40,606 nt of DNA from Escherichia phage T7, in the sequence record LR745708. The stretch is one strand, 5' to 3'. Both the position numbers and the translations under genes were made by a program. Below are positions 24,006-40,606 of the stretch, piece by piece. Below the pieces are notes generated by a model. The model did not search any database. It saw only the letters and a list, made by a program, of their open reading frames with translations, and was not told where the DNA came from. Position 1 is the first letter of the stretch. Every line of letters begins with the position of its first letter.

Positions 24006-24160
24006 TGCTGGGGGTGGCCTCAACGGTCGCTGCTAGTCCCGAAGAGGCGAGTGTTACTTCAACAGAAGAAACCTTAACGCCAGCACAGGAGGCCGCACGC
24101 ACCCGCGCTGCTAACAAAGCCCGAAAGGAAGCTGAGTTGGCTGCTGCCACCGCTGAGTAA
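22968..24160 (+). CDS. 10B: Gene 10B minor capsid protein (-1 frameshift extension of 10A)
   Basis: Shifting to the -1 frame at the GGTTTTC region (~23988-23993) gives ...FQSGVMLGVASTVAASPEEASVTSTEETLTPAQEAARTRAANKARKEAELAAATAE, ending at TAA 24158-24160. Confidence 0.8.
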
Positions 24161-24842: not shown

Positions 24843-27227
24843 ATGGCACTCATTAGCCAATCAATCAAGAACTTGAGGGGTGGTATCAGCCAACAGCCTG
24901 ACATCCTTCGTTATCCAGACCAAGGGTCACGCCAAGTTAACGGTTGGTCTTCGGAGACCGAGGGCCTCCAAAAGCGTCCACCTCTTGTTTTCTTAAATAC
25001 ACTTGGAGACAACGGTGCGTTAGGTCAAGCTCCGTACATCCACCTGATTAACCGAGATGAGCACGAACAGTATTACGCTGTGTTCACTGGTAGCGGAATC
25101 CGAGTGTTCGACCTTTCTGGTAACGAGAAGCAAGTTAGGTATCCTAACGGTTCCAACTACATCAAGACCGCTAATCCACGTAACGACCTGCGAATGGTTA
25201 CTGTAGCAGACTATACGTTCATCGTTAACCGTAACGTTGTTGCACAGAAGAACACAAAGTCTGTCAACTTACCGAATTACAACCCTAATCAAGACGGATT
25301 GATTAACGTTCGTGGTGGTCAGTATGGTAGGGAACTAATTGTACACATTAACGGTAAAGACGTTGCGAAGTATAAGATACCAGATGGTAGTCAACCTGAA
25401 CACGTAAACAATACGGATGCCCAATGGTTAGCTGAAGAGTTAGCCAAGCAGATGCGCACTAACTTGTCTGATTGGACTGTAAATGTAGGGCAAGGGTTCA
25501 TCCATGTGACCGCACCTAGTGGTCAACAGATTGACTCCTTCACGACTAAAGATGGCTACGCAGACCAGTTGATTAACCCTGTGACCCACTACGCTCAGTC
25601 GTTCTCTAAGCTGCCACCTAATGCTCCTAACGGCTACATGGTGAAAATCGTAGGGGACGCCTCTAAGTCTGCCGACCAGTATTACGTTCGGTATGACGCT
25701 GAGCGGAAAGTTTGGACTGAGACTTTAGGTTGGAACACTGAGGACCAAGTTCTATGGGAAACCATGCCACACGCTCTTGTGCGAGCCGCTGACGGTAATT
25801 TCGACTTCAAGTGGCTTGAGTGGTCTCCTAAGTCTTGTGGTGACGTTGACACCAACCCTTGGCCTTCTTTTGTTGGTTCAAGTATTAACGATGTGTTCTT
25901 CTTCCGTAACCGCTTAGGATTCCTTAGTGGGGAGAACATCATATTGAGTCGTACAGCCAAATACTTCAACTTCTACCCTGCGTCCATTGCGAACCTTAGT
26001 GATGACGACCCTATAGACGTAGCTGTGAGTACCAACCGAATAGCAATCCTTAAGTACGCCGTTCCGTTCTCAGAAGAGTTACTCATCTGGTCCGATGAAG
26101 CACAATTCGTCCTGACTGCCTCGGGTACTCTCACATCTAAGTCGGTTGAGTTGAACCTAACGACCCAGTTTGACGTACAGGACCGAGCGAGACCTTTTGG
26201 GATTGGGCGTAATGTCTACTTTGCTAGTCCGAGGTCCAGCTTCACGTCCATCCACAGGTACTACGCTGTGCAGGATGTCAGTTCCGTTAAGAATGCTGAG
26301 GACATTACATCACACGTTCCTAACTACATCCCTAATGGTGTGTTCAGTATTTGCGGAAGTGGTACGGAAAACTTCTGTTCGGTACTATCTCACGGGGACC
26401 CTAGTAAAATCTTCATGTACAAATTCCTGTACCTGAACGAAGAGTTAAGGCAACAGTCGTGGTCTCATTGGGACTTTGGGGAAAACGTACAGGTTCTAGC
26501 TTGTCAGAGTATCAGCTCAGATATGTATGTGATTCTTCGCAATGAGTTCAATACGTTCCTAGCTAGAATCTCTTTCACTAAGAACGCCATTGACTTACAG
26601 GGAGAACCCTATCGTGCCTTTATGGACATGAAGATTCGATACACGATTCCTAGTGGAACATACAACGATGACACATTCACTACCTCTATTCATATTCCAA
26701 CAATTTATGGTGCAAACTTCGGGAGGGGCAAAATCACTGTATTGGAGCCTGATGGTAAGATAACCGTGTTTGAGCAACCTACGGCTGGGTGGAATAGCGA
26801 CCCTTGGCTGAGACTCAGCGGTAACTTGGAGGGACGCATGGTGTACATTGGGTTCAACATTAACTTCGTATATGAGTTCTCTAAGTTCCTCATCAAGCAG
26901 ACTGCCGACGACGGGTCTACCTCCACGGAAGACATTGGGCGCTTACAGTTACGCCGAGCGTGGGTTAACTACGAGAACTCTGGTACGTTTGACATTTATG
27001 TTGAGAACCAATCGTCTAACTGGAAGTACACAATGGCTGGTGCCCGATTAGGCTCTAACACTCTGAGGGCTGGGAGACTGAACTTAGGGACCGGACAATA
27101 TCGATTCCCTGTGGTTGGTAACGCCAAGTTCAACACTGTATACATCTTGTCAGATGAGACTACCCCTCTGAACATCATTGGGTGTGGCTGGGAAGGTAAC
27201 TACTTACGGAGAAGTTCCGGTATTTAA
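24843..27227 (+). CDS. 12: Gene 12 tail tubular protein B
   Basis: 794-aa ORF MALISQSIKNLRGGISQQPD... Confidence 0.95.
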   Translation: MALISQSIKNLRGGISQQPDILRYPDQGSRQVNGWSSETEGLQKRPPLVFLNTLGDNGALGQAPYIHLINRDEHEQYYAVFTGSGIRVFDLSGNEKQVRYPNGSNYIKTANPRNDLRMVTVADYTFIVNRNVVAQKNTKSVNLPNYNPNQDGLINVRGGQYGRELIVHINGKDVAKYKIPDGSQPEHVNNTDAQWLAEELAKQMRTNLSDWTVNVGQGFIHVTAPSGQQIDSFTTKDGYADQLINPVTHYAQSFSKLPPNAPNGYMVKIVGDASKSADQYYVRYDAERKVWTETLGWNTEDQVLWETMPHALVRAADGNFDFKWLEWSPKSCGDVDTNPWPSFVGSSINDVFFFRNRLGFLSGENIILSRTAKYFNFYPASIANLSDDDPIDVAVSTNRIAILKYAVPFSEELLIWSDEAQFVLTASGTLTSKSVELNLTTQFDVQDRARPFGIGRNVYFASPRSSFTSIHRYYAVQDVSSVKNAEDITSHVPNYIPNGVFSICGSGTENFCSVLSHGDPSKIFMYKFLYLNEELRQQSWSHWDFGENVQVLACQSISSDMYVILRNEFNTFLARISFTKNAIDLQGEPYRAFMDMKIRYTIPSGTYNDDTFTTSIHIPTIYGANFGRGKITVLEPDGKITVFEQPTAGWNSDPWLRLSGNLEGRMVYIGFNINFVYEFSKFLIKQTADDGSTSTEDIGRLQLRRAWVNYENSGTFDIYVENQSSNWKYTMAGARLGSNTLRAGRLNLGTGQYRFPVVGNAKFNTVYILSDETTPLNIIGCGWEGNYLRRSSGI

Positions 27228-34624: not shown

Positions 34625-36682
34625 ATGGCTAACGTAATTAAAACCGTTTTGACTTACCAGTTAGATGGCTCCAATCGTGATTTTAATATCCCGTTTGAGT
34701 ATCTAGCCCGTAAGTTCGTAGTGGTAACTCTTATTGGTGTAGACCGAAAGGTCCTTACGATTAATACAGACTATCGCTTTGCTACACGTACTACTATCTC
34801 TCTGACAAAGGCTTGGGGTCCAGCCGATGGCTACACGACCATCGAGTTACGTCGAGTAACCTCCACTACCGACCGATTGGTTGACTTTACGGATGGTTCA
34901 ATCCTCCGCGCGTATGACCTTAACGTCGCTCAGATTCAAACGATGCACGTAGCGGAAGAGGCCCGTGACCTCACTACGGATACTATCGGTGTCAATAACG
35001 ATGGTCACTTGGATGCTCGTGGTCGTCGAATTGTGAACCTAGCGAACGCCGTGGATGACCGCGATGCTGTTCCGTTTGGTCAACTAAAGACCATGAACCA
35101 GAACTCATGGCAAGCACGTAATGAAGCCTTACAGTTCCGTAATGAGGCTGAGACTTTCAGAAACCAAGCGGAGGGCTTTAAGAACGAGTCCAGTACCAAC
35201 GCTACGAACACAAAGCAGTGGCGCGATGAGACCAAGGGTTTCCGAGACGAAGCCAAGCGGTTCAAGAATACGGCTGGTCAATACGCTACATCTGCTGGGA
35301 ACTCTGCTTCCGCTGCGCATCAATCTGAGGTAAACGCTGAGAACTCTGCCACAGCATCCGCTAACTCTGCTCATTTGGCAGAACAGCAAGCAGACCGTGC
35401 GGAACGTGAGGCAGACAAGCTGGAAAATTACAATGGATTGGCTGGTGCAATTGATAAGGTAGATGGAACCAATGTGTACTGGAAAGGAAATATTCACGCT
35501 AACGGGCGCCTTTACATGACCACAAACGGTTTTGACTGTGGCCAGTATCAACAGTTCTTTGGTGGTGTCACTAATCGTTACTCTGTCATGGAGTGGGGAG
35601 ATGAGAACGGATGGCTGATGTATGTTCAACGTAGAGAGTGGACAACAGCGATAGGCGGTAACATCCAGTTAGTAGTAAACGGACAGATCATCACCCAAGG
35701 TGGAGCCATGACCGGTCAGCTAAAATTGCAGAATGGGCATGTTCTTCAATTAGAGTCCGCATCCGACAAGGCGCACTATATTCTATCTAAAGATGGTAAC
35801 AGGAATAACTGGTACATTGGTAGAGGGTCAGATAACAACAATGACTGTACCTTCCACTCCTATGTACATGGTACGACCTTAACACTCAAGCAGGACTATG
35901 CAGTAGTTAACAAACACTTCCACGTAGGTCAGGCCGTTGTGGCCACTGATGGTAATATTCAAGGTACTAAGTGGGGAGGTAAATGGCTGGATGCTTACCT
36001 ACGTGACAGCTTCGTTGCGAAGAACGAATACAGCCTGTGGGACATCAAGTTTCGCCCGGCTGCGCTCGACCCGCGCGGCATGACGCTGGTTGCCGGCGCG
36101 TTTTGGGCAGACATCTATCTGCTAGGCGTCAACCACCTGACCGATGGCACCAGCAAATACAACGTGACAATTGCAGATGGTAGTGCATCACCTAAGAAAT
36201 CTACCAAGTTCGGTGGAGACGGCAGCGCGGCCTACAGTGACGGAGCTTGGTACAACTTCGCTGAGGTCATGACTCATCACGGTAAGCGCCTGCCTAACTA
36301 CAACGAATTCCAGGCGCTGGCTTTCGGCACGACCGAGGCTACGTCCAGCGGCGGCACCGACGTGCCCACCACCGGCGTGAACGGCACGGGCGCAACGAGT
36401 GCGTGGAACATCTTCACGTCCAAGTGGGGCGTTGTGCAGGCGTCCGGTTGCTTGTGGACGTGGGGTAACGAGTTCGGCGGCGTGAATGGCGCATCCGAAT
36501 ACACGGCCAACACTGGCGGCAGAGGATCGGTGTACGCCCAGCCCGCTGCTGCGCTATTCGGCGGCGCCTGGAACGGCACGTCGCTCTCGGGTTCTCGCGC
36601 TGCGCTCTGGTACAGCGGGCCGTCGTTCTCGTTCGCGTTCTTCGGGGCGCGCGGCGTCTGTGACCACCTGATTCTTGAGTAG
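34625..36682 (+). CDS. 17: Chimeric tail-fibre protein: T7 gp17 residues 1-466 fused to a heterologous ~219-aa C-terminal receptor-binding domain (Mtd-like C-type-lectin fold with DGR variable region)
   Basis: 685-aa ORF against 553 aa for native gp17 as I recall. Translation is T7 gp17 up to ...GGKWLDAYLRDSFVAK (codon 466, nt 36020-36022), then diverges into GC-rich sequence NEYSLWDIKFRPAALDPRGMTLVAGAFWADIYLLG...GARGVCDHLILE. Confidence 0.9.
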   Translation: MANVIKTVLTYQLDGSNRDFNIPFEYLARKFVVVTLIGVDRKVLTINTDYRFATRTTISLTKAWGPADGYTTIELRRVTSTTDRLVDFTDGSILRAYDLNVAQIQTMHVAEEARDLTTDTIGVNNDGHLDARGRRIVNLANAVDDRDAVPFGQLKTMNQNSWQARNEALQFRNEAETFRNQAEGFKNESSTNATNTKQWRDETKGFRDEAKRFKNTAGQYATSAGNSASAAHQSEVNAENSATASANSAHLAEQQADRAEREADKLENYNGLAGAIDKVDGTNVYWKGNIHANGRLYMTTNGFDCGQYQQFFGGVTNRYSVMEWGDENGWLMYVQRREWTTAIGGNIQLVVNGQIITQGGAMTGQLKLQNGHVLQLESASDKAHYILSKDGNRNNWYIGRGSDNNNDCTFHSYVHGTTLTLKQDYAVVNKHFHVGQAVVATDGNIQGTKWGGKWLDAYLRDSFVAKNEYSLWDIKFRPAALDPRGMTLVAGAFWADIYLLGVNHLTDGTSKYNVTIADGSASPKKSTKFGGDGSAAYSDGAWYNFAEVMTHHGKRLPNYNEFQALAFGTTEATSSGGTDVPTTGVNGTGATSAWNIFTSKWGVVQASGCLWTWGNEFGGVNGASEYTANTGGRGSVYAQPAAALFGGAWNGTSLSGSRAALWYSGPSFSFAFFGARGVCDHLILE
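36023..36682 (+). other. Heterologous graft within gene 17 (GC-rich; Mtd-like domain)
   Basis: Abrupt rise in G+C and change of codon usage relative to flanking T7 sequence; the encoded C-terminus ...AALFGGAWNGTSLSGSRAALWYSGPSFSFAFFGARGVCDHLILE resembles, from memory, the BPP-1 Mtd variable-region end. Confidence 0.65.
36544..36680 (+). other. Putative DGR variable region (VR) with IMH-like 3' end
   Basis: ~135-bp stretch that is strongly adenine-poor, with many NNC codons (gcc, aac, ggc, ctc, tac, agc, ttc x4), ending in a GC-only run (ggggcgcgcggcg) and tctgtgaccacctgattcttgag. Confidence 0.6.
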
Positions 36683-36701
36683 CGGGGCCGAAAGGCCCCG
36701 C
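36682..36701 (+). promoter_or_regulatory. GC-rich hairpin with GAAA loop straddling the gene 17 stop (DGR target-recognition hairpin/cruciform-like)
   Basis: gcggggcc-GAAA-ggccccgc: a perfect 8-bp stem with a 4-nt GAAA loop, directly readable. Confidence 0.7.
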
Positions 36702-36723
36702 CAAGGCAACCGTACTCGAACCA

Positions 36724-36760
36724 CTAGCCCGCTCTTATCGGGCGGCTAGGGGTTTTTTGT
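36724..36760 (+). terminator. Putative terminator-like element (imperfect hairpin + G4T6)
   Basis: ctagcccgctcttatcgggcggctag forms an imperfect stem, followed by gggttttttg, which mimics the tail of Tphi (gaggggttttttg). Confidence 0.4.
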
Positions 36761-36784
36761 GATTTACTTTAAGGAGGTCAAATG
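36761..36784 (+). promoter_or_regulatory. Duplicated gene 17 ribosome-binding site driving trxA
   Basis: gatttactttaaggaggtcaaATG at 36761-36784 is identical to 34604-34627, the native gene 17 RBS and start. Confidence 0.9.
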
Positions 36785-37111
36785 AGCGATAAAATCATTC
36801 ACCTGACCGATGACTCTTTTGATACCGACGTGCTGAAAGCTGATGGTGCAATTCTGGTTGATTTCTGGGCAGAGTGGTGCGGCCCTTGCAAAATGATCGC
36901 TCCAATCCTGGACGAAATTGCGGACGAATATCAGGGTAAGCTGACTGTGGCCAAACTGAACATTGACCAGAACCCTGGCACCGCACCGAAATACGGTATC
37001 CGTGGCATCCCAACTCTGCTGCTGTTCAAAAACGGTGAAGTGGCAGCAACCAAAGTAGGCGCTCTGTCTAAAGGCCAACTGAAAGAGTTCCTGGACGCCA
37101 ACCTGGCTTAA
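36782..37111 (+). CDS. trxA: Thioredoxin 1 (E. coli TrxA, identical protein), inserted into the phage genome
   Basis: 109-aa product [109 protein letters not shown] with the CGPC active site; not a T7 gene. Confidence 0.97.
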
Positions 37112-37172
37112 TGATTGGTAAATCACAAGGAAAGACGTGTAGTCCACGGATGGACTCTCAAGGAGGTACAAG

Positions 37173-37376
37173 GTGCTATCATTAGACTTTAACAACGAAT
37201 TGATTAAGGCTGCTCCAATTGTTGGGACGGGTGTAGCAGATGTTAGTGCTCGACTGTTCTTTGGGTTAAGCCTTAACGAATGGTTCTACGTTGCTGCTAT
37301 CGCCTACACAGTGGTTCAGATTGGTGCCAAGGTAGTCGATAAGATGATTGACTGGAAGAAAGCCAATAAGGAGTGA
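37173..37376 (+). CDS. 17.5: Gene 17.5 holin
   Basis: GTG at 37173 after AGGAGG; 67 aa with a hydrophobic core, MLSLDFNNELIKAAPIVGTGVADVSARLFFGL... Confidence 0.85.
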   Translation: MLSLDFNNELIKAAPIVGTGVADVSARLFFGLSLNEWFYVAAIAYTVVQIGAKVVDKMIDWKKANKE

Positions 37377-37381
37377 TATGT

Positions 37382-37651
37382 ATGGAAAAGGATAAGAGCC
37401 TTATTACATTCTTAGAGATGTTGGACACTGCGATGGCTCAGCGTATGCTTGCGGACCTTTCGGACCATGAGCGTCGCTCTCCGCAACTCTATAATGCTAT
37501 TAACAAACTGTTAGACCGCCACAAGTTCCAGATTGGTAAGTTGCAGCCGGATGTTCACATCTTAGGTGGCCTTGCTGGTGCTCTTGAAGAGTACAAAGAG
37601 AAAGTCGGTGATAACGGTCTTACGGATGATGATATTTACACATTACAGTGA
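37382..37651 (+). CDS. 18: Gene 18 terminase small subunit
   Basis: ATG at 37382; 89 aa MEKDKSLITFLEMLDTAMAQRM...; ORF-track start 37373 is an upstream extension. Confidence 0.85.
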   Translation: MEKDKSLITFLEMLDTAMAQRMLADLSDHERRSPQLYNAINKLLDRHKFQIGKLQPDVHILGGLAGALEEYKEKVGDNGLTDDDIYTLQ

Positions 37652-37692
37652 TATACTCAAGGCCACTACAGATAGTGGTCTTTATGGATGTC
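37652..37692 (+). promoter_or_regulatory. RNase III processing site R18.5
   Basis: tatactcaaggccactacagatagtggtctttatggatg hairpin motif. Confidence 0.5.
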
Positions 37693-37745
37693 ATTGTCTA
37701 TACGAGATGCTCCTACGTGAAATCTGAAAGTTAACGGGAGGCATT

Positions 37746-38177
37746 ATGCTAGAATTTTTACGTAAGCTAATCCCTTGGGTTCTCGCTGGGATGCTATTCG
37801 GGTTAGGATGGCATCTAGGGTCAGACTCAATGGACGCTAAATGGAAACAGGAGGTACACAATGAGTACGTTAAGAGAGTTGAGGCTGCGAAGAGCACTCA
37901 AAGAGCAATCGATGCGGTATCTGCTAAGTATCAAGAAGACCTTGCCGCGCTGGAAGGGAGCACTGATAGGATTATTTCTGATTTGCGTAGCGACAATAAG
38001 CGGTTGCGCGTCAGAGTCAAAACTACCGGAACCTCCGATGGTCAGTGTGGATTCGAGCCTGATGGTCGAGCCGAACTTGACGACCGAGATGCTAAACGTA
38101 TTCTCGCAGTGACCCAGAAGGGTGACGCATGGATTCGTGCGTTACAGGATACTATTCGTGAACTGCAACGTAAGTAG
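37746..38177 (+). CDS. 18.5: Gene 18.5 spanin (Rz-like, inner-membrane component)
   Basis: 143 aa with an N-terminal transmembrane segment (LIPWVLAGMLFGLGWHLG). Confidence 0.85.
   Translation: MLEFLRKLIPWVLAGMLFGLGWHLGSDSMDAKWKQEVHNEYVKRVEAAKSTQRAIDAVSAKYQEDLAALEGSTDRIISDLRSDNKRLRVRVKTTGTSDGQCGFEPDGRAELDDRDAKRILAVTQKGDAWIRALQDTIRELQRK
37861..38112 (+). CDS. 18.7: Gene 18.7 spanin (Rz1-like), embedded in 18.5 in another frame
   Basis: 83-aa ORF nested inside 18.5; contains a lipobox-like LICVATISGCAS. Confidence 0.7.
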   Translation: MSTLRELRLRRALKEQSMRYLLSIKKTLPRWKGALIGLFLICVATISGCASESKLPEPPMVSVDSSLMVEPNLTTEMLNVFSQ

Positions 38178-38198
38178 GAAATCAAGTAAGGAGGCAAT

Positions 38199-39959
38199 GT
38201 GTCTACTCAATCCAATCGTAATGCGCTCGTAGTGGCGCAACTGAAAGGAGACTTCGTGGCGTTCCTATTCGTCTTATGGAAGGCGCTAAACCTACCGGTG
38301 CCCACTAAGTGTCAGATTGACATGGCTAAGGTGCTGGCGAATGGAGACAACAAGAAGTTCATCTTACAGGCTTTCCGTGGTATCGGTAAGTCGTTCATCA
38401 CATGTGCGTTCGTTGTGTGGTCCTTATGGAGAGACCCTCAGTTGAAGATACTTATCGTATCAGCCTCTAAGGAGCGTGCAGACGCTAACTCCATCTTTAT
38501 TAAGAACATCATTGACCTGCTGCCATTCCTATCTGAGTTAAAGCCAAGACCCGGACAGCGTGACTCGGTAATCAGCTTTGATGTAGGCCCAGCCAATCCT
38601 GACCACTCTCCTAGTGTGAAATCAGTAGGTATCACTGGTCAGTTAACTGGTAGCCGTGCTGACATTATCATTGCGGATGACGTTGAGATTCCGTCTAACA
38701 GCGCAACTATGGGTGCCCGTGAGAAGCTATGGACTCTGGTTCAGGAGTTCGCTGCGTTACTTAAACCGCTGCCTTCCTCTCGCGTTATCTACCTTGGTAC
38801 ACCTCAGACAGAGATGACTCTCTATAAGGAACTTGAGGATAACCGTGGGTACACAACCATTATCTGGCCTGCTCTGTACCCAAGGACACGTGAAGAGAAC
38901 CTCTATTACTCACAGCGTCTTGCTCCTATGTTACGCGCTGAGTACGATGAGAACCCTGAGGCACTTGCTGGGACTCCAACAGACCCAGTGCGCTTTGACC
39001 GTGATGACCTGCGCGAGCGTGAGTTGGAATACGGTAAGGCTGGCTTTACGCTACAGTTCATGCTTAACCCTAACCTTAGTGATGCCGAGAAGTACCCGCT
39101 GAGGCTTCGTGACGCTATCGTAGCGGCCTTAGACTTAGAGAAGGCCCCAATGCATTACCAGTGGCTTCCGAACCGTCAGAACATCATTGAGGACCTTCCT
39201 AACGTTGGCCTTAAGGGTGATGACCTGCATACGTACCACGATTGTTCCAACAACTCAGGTCAGTACCAACAGAAGATTCTGGTCATTGACCCTAGTGGTC
39301 GCGGTAAGGACGAAACAGGTTACGCTGTGCTGTACACACTGAACGGTTACATCTACCTTATGGAAGCTGGAGGTTTCCGTGATGGCTACTCCGATAAGAC
39401 CCTTGAGTTACTCGCTAAGAAGGCAAAGCAATGGGGAGTCCAGACGGTTGTCTACGAGAGTAACTTCGGTGACGGTATGTTCGGTAAGGTATTCAGTCCT
39501 ATCCTTCTTAAACACCACAACTGTGCGATGGAAGAGATTCGTGCCCGTGGTATGAAAGAGATGCGTATTTGCGATACCCTTGAGCCAGTCATGCAGACTC
39601 ACCGCCTTGTAATTCGTGATGAGGTCATTAGGGCCGACTACCAGTCCGCTCGTGACGTAGACGGTAAGCATGACGTTAAGTACTCGTTGTTCTACCAGAT
39701 GACCCGTATCACTCGTGAGAAAGGCGCTCTGGCTCATGATGACCGATTGGATGCCCTTGCGTTAGGCATTGAGTATCTCCGTGAGTCCATGCAGTTGGAT
39801 TCCGTTAAGGTCGAGGGTGAAGTACTTGCTGACTTCCTTGAGGAACACATGATGCGTCCTACGGTTGCTGCTACGCATATCATTGAGATGTCTGTGGGAG
39901 GAGTTGATGTGTACTCTGAGGACGATGAGGGTTACGGTACGTCTTTCATTGAGTGGTGA
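38199..39959 (+). CDS. 19: Gene 19 terminase large subunit
   Basis: GTG at 38199 after AGGAGG; 586 aa [19 protein letters not shown]... Confidence 0.95.
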
Positions 39960-40040
39960 TTTATGCATTAGGACTGCATAGGGATGCACTATAGACCACG
40001 GATGGTCAGTTCTTTAAGTTACTGAAAAGACACGATAAAT

Positions 40041-40063
40041 TAATACGACTCACTATAGGGAGA
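40041..40063 (+). promoter_or_regulatory. T7 promoter phiOR
   Basis: taatacgactcactatagggaga. Confidence 0.9.
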
Positions 40064-40217
40064 GGAGGGACGAAAGGTTACTATATAGATACTGAATGAA
40101 TACTTATAGAGTGCATAAAGTATGCATAATGGTGTACCTAGAGTGACCTCTAAGAATGGTGATTATATTGTATTAGTATCACCTTAACTTAAGGACCAAC
40201 ATAAAGGGAGGAGACTC

Positions 40218-40367
40218 ATGTTCCGCTTATTGTTGAACCTACTGCGGCATAGAGTCACCTACCGATTTCTTGTGGTACTTTGTGCTGCCCTTGGGTACGC
40301 ATCTCTTACTGGAGACCTCAGTTCACTGGAGTCTGTCGTTTGCTCTATACTCACTTGTAGCGATTAG
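40218..40367 (+). CDS. 19.5: Gene 19.5
   Basis: ATG at 40218 after GGGAGGAG; 49 aa MFRLLLNLLRHRVTYRFLVVLCAALG... Confidence 0.7.
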   Translation: MFRLLLNLLRHRVTYRFLVVLCAALGYASLTGDLSSLESVVCSILTCSD

Positions 40368-40439
40368 GGTCTTCCTGACCGACTGATGGCTCACCGAGGG
40401 ATTCAGCGGTATGATTGCATCACACCACTTCATCCCTAT

Positions 40440-40606
40440 AGAGTCAAGTCCTAAGGTATACCCATAAAGAGCCTCTAATGGTCTATCCTAAGGTCTATAC
40501 CTAAAGATAGGCCATCCTATCAGTGTCACCTAAAGAGGGTCTTAGAGAGGGCCTATGGAGTTCCTATAGGGTCCTTTAAAATATACCATAAAAATCTGAG
40601 TGACTA
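40440..40606. repeat. Right-end short CCTAAAG-like repeat region, ending immediately before the right terminal repeat
   Basis: cctaaggt..., acctaaagataggcc, cacctaaagaggg repeats; window ends ...aaatctgagtgacta, the sequence I recall directly preceding the terminal repeat. Confidence 0.6.

Follow-up and report, generated by a model that had tools for sequence, protein, structure and literature searches.

The window analysed here, which is the whole 40,606-nucleotide stretch of sequence record LR745708 (Escherichia phage T7), is, with a probability of about 0.97, the phAG_3 genome. This synthetic derivative of T7 carries, as the tip of its tail fibre gp17, the receptor-binding domain of Mtd (major tropism determinant) from the Bordetella phage BPP-1. 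We make this identification because the published design table, the published mtd g-block, a diagnostic single-nucleotide variant (SNV) and the trxA gene that follows the fusion gene all agree with it, and nothing was found that contradicts it. Both the design of this phage and its negative phenotype are already known, as Grigonyte et al. published the construct in 2020 (Viruses 12:193). The window is a synthetic laboratory genome and not natural biology; its fusion joins the T7 and Mtd sequences at a point that sequence comparisons place at a domain boundary of gp17.

The fusion junction and the T7 backbone

The fusion lies in a 685-codon open reading frame at 34625..36682 on the plus strand, which also carries all other features described below. 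An alignment to T7 (V01146) is perfect through the AAG codon at 36020-36022, codon 466 of the frame, and the sequences are unrelated beyond it: the window reads ttc gtt gcg aag / aac gaa tac at 36011-36031, where T7 continues after the same AAG with TCC AAG GCG TGG. Because the T7 match ends precisely after this codon, the switch is exact; it keeps the reading frame and falls between two codons, just where the initial annotation had put it. The G+C content rises at this point from about 0.47 to 0.63-0.69. The junction (36020..36025) links the AAG of gp17 K466 to the AAC of Mtd N163, as is seen in the V01146 alignment, the sibling records and Table S4 of PMC7077284. It had been asked whether native gp17 might in fact continue past residue 466, and this is not the case, as residues 467-685 correspond to residues 163-381 of Mtd-P1.

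Upstream of the junction, codons 1-466 of gene 17 (34625..36022) encode the tail-attachment region, the shaft, the pyramid and the linker to K466, and they are identical to V01146 and to the chain in PDB 7BOZ. A Pfam search of the chimera matches Phage_T7_tail at residues 1-162 (E = 4e-74) and the pyramid profile gp37_trimer, over its full length, at residues 371-464 (E = 1.7e-40), in agreement with the earlier proposal that these three regions of the fibre are kept.

All sequence outside 36023-37113 is T7. In a genome-wide alignment, window positions 1-36022 correspond to V01146 1-36021 with 3 differences, and positions 37114..40606, where T7 resumes with genes 17.5, 18, 18.5, 19 and onward, correspond to T7 36285-39777 at 100% identity. 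The insert between them is 1091 bases long and takes the place of T7 36022-36284, which encodes gp17 residues 467-553. Relative to V01146 the window has a T in place of C at 24158, near the end of gene 10B, and one additional A, at 1896 within the region of gene 0.6B. The gene 17 coordinates of other T7 records (e.g. AY264774, 39,938 bp) are likewise shifted by +1, and those records may therefore share the additional A as a variant. At the right end of the window (40447-40606) the 160-bp right terminal repeat is absent, with the window stopping at T7 39777 and containing the left copy only; the same laboratory's wild-type T7 record, LR745710, has a matching length of 39,778 bp. The missing repeat is probably a direct terminal repeat that was collapsed in short-read assembly.

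A junction of this kind could in principle be a chimera of T7 and BPP-1 reads produced during assembly or sequencing, given that the genomes were assembled from short reads according to PMC7077284 and that the missing right repeat shows the assembly to be imperfect. We consider this to be exceedingly improbable, as the junction joins whole codons without a frame shift, recurs in sibling records that are independent, and agrees with the design in Table S4. The methods of the same paper also state that PCR and Sanger sequencing were used to confirm the mutants.

Agreement with the published phAG_3

The source paper of phAG_3 (PMC7077284; project PRJEB35760) allows a direct comparison between the window and the published construct. 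In its Table S4, fusion 3, made with plasmid pAG25, consists of gp17 1-466 and Mtd 163-382 and is phAG_3. Just one SNV, T7 24876 A>G (K>R), is given for phAG_3 in its Table S6, and the table gives this change for no other phage. The window has a G at 24877, aligned to the A at T7 24876, and this diagnostic gene 12 change is therefore present. The paper describes the additional SNVs of its phages as lying in regions that the authors call non-essential. Furthermore, a comparison of window 36023-36760 with the mtd g-block printed in Fig. S7 shows one substitution and six single-base gaps. The gaps are attributed to machine reading of the PDF, because real gaps would break the reading frame. At 36400 the window has a T, in contrast to the C found in LR745707, in BPP-1 and in the g-block as published, which makes a synonymous serine change (AGC>AGT). 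This T is not among the SNVs of Table S6, a table that we infer to have been compiled by comparison with wild-type T7. Taken side by side, the window and the published phAG_3 share the gp17 1-466 plus Mtd design, the downstream trxA, the g-block including its 48-nt tail, and the 24876 A>G change, and they differ at the one synonymous base at 36400.

Two sibling records carry the same K466 junction. In LR745707.1, the closest record in public databases, the annotation describes a chimaeric tail fibre made of gp17 1-466 and BPP1 Mtd, followed by trxA. Going by which phages are reported as sequenced in PMC7077284, this record is probably phAG_4. It resembles the window in its junction, its recoded Mtd DNA, its hairpin and its trxA cassette, with 99.8% identity over the shared Mtd region, but its Mtd portion starts at K171, without the 8 codons (24 nt) that encode NEYSLWDI, and it is without the 48-nt spacer. 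The second record, LR745709.1, is phPM, in which gp17 1-466 is fused to residues 485-569 of Yep-phi gp17; it has the K466 junction and the trxA marker in common with the window. Directly after the stop codon of its Yep-phi chimera, LR745709.1 also contains a stretch of 73 nt (36281-36353) made up of the mtd 3' end and the BPP-1 hairpin, 100% identical to window 36640-36712, which appears to be left over from building the plasmid out of an mtd construct.

K466 as a domain boundary of gp17

As judged from sequence comparison, K466 is a real domain boundary, within 1-4 residues by every test, because the Pfam limits and the breaks in natural homology at 462/463 place it there independently. In native gp17, Pfam assigns gp37_trimer to residues 371-464 and the tip profile, gp37_C, to residues 466-542, both as full-length profile matches. 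The chimera, from which T7 36022-36284 is deleted, has no match to gp37_C, which bears out the claim that the LPS-binding tip has been replaced. A tblastn search with gp17 371-553 against 50,697 phage records gave the second estimate, as natural homologues cover either only 371-462 or only 463-552/553. The fibres of T4-like and FelixO1-like phages match gp17 only at 371-462 or shorter, and many T7-family phages, including BA14, FE44, BSP161, Carena and Yersinia T7-like phages, are matched only at 463-552/553. The initial annotation had located the start of the tip at about residue 465, and both sets of limits support a junction at this boundary. Published work describes a short alpha-helical linker that joins the tip to the pyramid or shaft (PMC11680406) and a beta-sandwich tip joined through a short loop (PMC8043750).

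The homology break seen among naturally exchanged T7-family tips (BA14, FE44, Yersinia T7-like) lies 3-4 residues from the engineered junction. The natural swaps nevertheless retain the tip fold (gp37_C), whereas the construct brings in a C-type-lectin fold from a phage of an unrelated genus (Rauchvirus). A single-sequence AlphaFold2 model of one chain of residues 371-685 has a pLDDT of 29.5 and a pTM of 0.17, values too low for the model to be informative.

The structure of gp17 was reportedly solved by van Raaij. In PMC7077284, van Raaij is thanked for help with the design of the tail-fibre fusions, and this, together with the Table S4 design and the annotation of LR745707, upholds the earlier suggestion that the swap was rational. 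It could be argued instead that the junction was chosen for cloning convenience and matches the domain boundary by chance; a structural rationale does not seem to be stated in the main text of PMC7077284, and on the Mtd side the start at residue 163 does not quite coincide with a domain boundary. Yet K466 is within 1-4 residues of two independent boundary estimates, and it is constant across all seven Mtd and Yep-phi fusions that the paper reports, while the Mtd start points vary among the constructs (171, 170, 163, 55, 52 and 47) and cluster near the Pfam limits of full-length Mtd (Mtd_N 5-41, mtd_2nd 66-169). With the credited help in fusion design added to this, a chance match is very improbable, and a junction placed by design at the domain boundary is the reading that we adopt.

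The Mtd tip and its DGR target

Residues 467-685 of the chimera match residues 163-381 of Mtd-P1, the pertactin-binding variant from BPP-1 (PDB 1YU0), with 100% identity; the structure of Mtd-P1 in complex with pertactin is also available (PDB 2IOU). The first eight of these residues, Mtd 163-170 (NEYSLWDI; 36023..36046), come from the end of the second domain of Mtd, which Pfam mtd_2nd places at Mtd 66-169, and serve as a connector. The C-type-lectin receptor-binding domain, Mtd-P1 residues 171-381, follows with its stop codon at 36047..36682, and its fold, which carries the variable residues, is present by virtue of the 100% protein identity to the solved structure 1YU0. Neither Mtd_N, for the N-terminal beta-prism, nor mtd_2nd is matched by Pfam in the chimera, with residues 163-170 being the only remnant of the second domain. 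The initial annotation had described the tip as the trimer-forming lectin domain of Mtd. The identity to 1YU0 and the trimeric nature of Mtd (PMC2408619) agree with this, but the fragment is more than the lectin domain, because its start at N163 precedes the end of mtd_2nd at residue 169 and the eight preceding residues are included.

Mtd works as a trimer. Within it, each protomer depends on the beta2-beta3 loop of an adjacent protomer to brace its binding site, and the trimer is needed for function because of this bracing. For Mtd-P1 and Bordetella pertactin the Kd is about 3 uM, and avidity on the phage brings this into the pM range (PMC2408619). In comparison with native BPP-1 Mtd (1YU0, 2IOU), the construct has the same lectin domain at the protein level and the same VR and hairpin at the DNA level, but it lacks Mtd_N, most of mtd_2nd, and the template repeat, avd and brt.

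The DNA of the mtd portion of the insert is 94.3% identical to BPP-1, and the differences are synonymous. The recoding is concentrated at 36169-36295, where third-position G/C is changed to A/T, and this accounts for a local dip in G+C to about 0.48-0.52 within an insert that is otherwise at 0.63-0.69. Further recoded sites are scattered through the fragment (e.g. 36052, 36091, 36109, 36394 and 36521-36523). Recoding of this sort is typical of a fragment adjusted for DNA synthesis.

The 3' end of the mtd sequence is free of such changes, as window 36544-36712 is base-identical to BPP-1 and contains a complete target of the diversity-generating retroelement (DGR), consisting of the variable region VR1, the homing sequence and the hairpin. 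VR1 of the BPP-1 DGR, including its GC-rich homing sequence at the 3' end, occupies 36544..36677 and is base-identical to VR1 in AY029185.2. The BPP-1 GC hairpin, GCGGGGCC GAAA GGCCCCGC, follows just after mtd at 36682..36701, is identical to its counterpart in BPP-1, and has a predicted 8-bp stem and a GAAA loop. The 30 bases 3' of the mtd stop codon are identical to BPP-1, and the homology ends at 36712, just upstream of the avd start. Because the genome, being T7 everywhere outside the insert, contains no template repeat (TR), no accessory gene (avd/bbp7) and no reverse transcriptase (RT; brt), the tip stays P1 as long as these components are not provided in trans. The construct is thus a designed hybrid, consisting of a gp17-family fibre without its tip domain and an incomplete DGR without TR, avd and RT.

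A spacer and a recoded trxA marker follow the fusion gene

The BPP-1 sequence is followed by a 48-nt synthetic spacer, TACTCGAACCACTAGCCCGCTCTTATCGGGCGGCTAGGGGTTTTTTGT (36713..36760). The mtd g-block printed in Fig. S7 includes this spacer, but neither LR745707 nor BPP-1 has it, and a search of the plasmid collection gave no match. Its predicted fold, a hairpin with a U-run after it, is terminator-like, although a simple terminator scan makes no call at this site. A terminator-like element between the chimeric gene 17 and trxA, upstream of the marker, is an odd design choice.

A ribosome-binding region with the motif AAGGAGG, read directly from the sequence and common to LR745707, lies at 36761..36781, and a 109-amino-acid open reading frame, annotated as trxA in the sibling records, extends over 36782..37111. 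It is followed by TAATGA, after which the T7 sequence begins again. The marker encodes thioredoxin while its DNA is only 86.1% identical to the trxA of all 5426 complete E. coli genomes, and it is therefore a recoded E. coli trxA. Its role is that of a positive-selection marker, a use of trxA that is described in PMC7077284.

This cassette also bears on whether the fusion could have arisen in nature, through recombination between a T7-like and a BPP-1-like phage. Tail-fibre tips are indeed exchanged between phages in nature, and natural modules break at nearly the same residue. Against such an origin stand the blocks of synonymous recoding in the mtd DNA, which match a published synthetic fragment, the recoded E. 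coli trxA that follows the fusion gene behind a ribosome-binding site of synthetic origin, and the remainder of the genome, which is laboratory T7 with 3 differences. A natural recombinant is accordingly so improbable as to be negligible, and we treat the window as the engineered phAG_3 in what follows.

Proposed construction and host-range outcome

In our reading, gene 17 codons 467-553, which encode the LPS-binding tip, were replaced through homologous recombination from a plasmid bearing a synthetic fragment. This fragment supplied Mtd-P1 163-381 followed by the recoded trxA, making recombinants selectable on E. coli lacking trxA, and K466 was chosen for structural reasons, as the end of the pyramid and linker and the first residue of the tip domain. 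In the resulting fibre, docking on the tail is meant to come from the native N-terminus (Phage_T7_tail, 1-162) and cohesion of the trimer from the shaft and pyramid. The Mtd lectin tip, which in its P1 form is specific for pertactin, is meant to present three binding sites built from 12 variable residues.

The initial annotation had predicted that such a phage would lose recognition of E. coli through the fibre tip, and the published phenotype fits this prediction: PMC7077284 reports that neither phAG_3 nor any other Mtd fusion infected E. coli, and that these phages grew only when wild-type gp17 was provided in trans. We infer that phAG_3 fails on E. coli at least in part since Mtd-P1 targets Bordetella pertactin, which is lacking there. 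The failure of all six Mtd designs is sufficiently explained in this way, because E. coli K-12 has no pertactin. The available portions of PMC7077284 report no assay on Bordetella or on pertactin-expressing cells, and a literature search found no later functional T7-Mtd chimera.

The Yep-phi tip joined at K466 is, in the account given by PMC7077284, the only functional fusion and yields an infective phage. The tip donated to phPM is homologous and belongs to the T7 family, and this phage infects E. coli, whereas the Mtd fusions carry an unrelated fold and are non-infective. K466 is therefore a sound graft point, at which a homologous tip is functional, but choosing the right boundary does not suffice if the donated domain differs in fold and in the receptor that it binds.

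It is unlikely, though conceivable, that the chimeric fibre folds, trimerises and mounts on the T7 tail, and that it fails on E. coli only through the absence of pertactin. If this were true, the phage would adsorb to cells that display pertactin, and its intact VR1, homing sequence and hairpin would allow the tip to be diversified by the BPP-1 TR, avd and brt provided in trans. The result would be a T7 with a self-diversifying host range.
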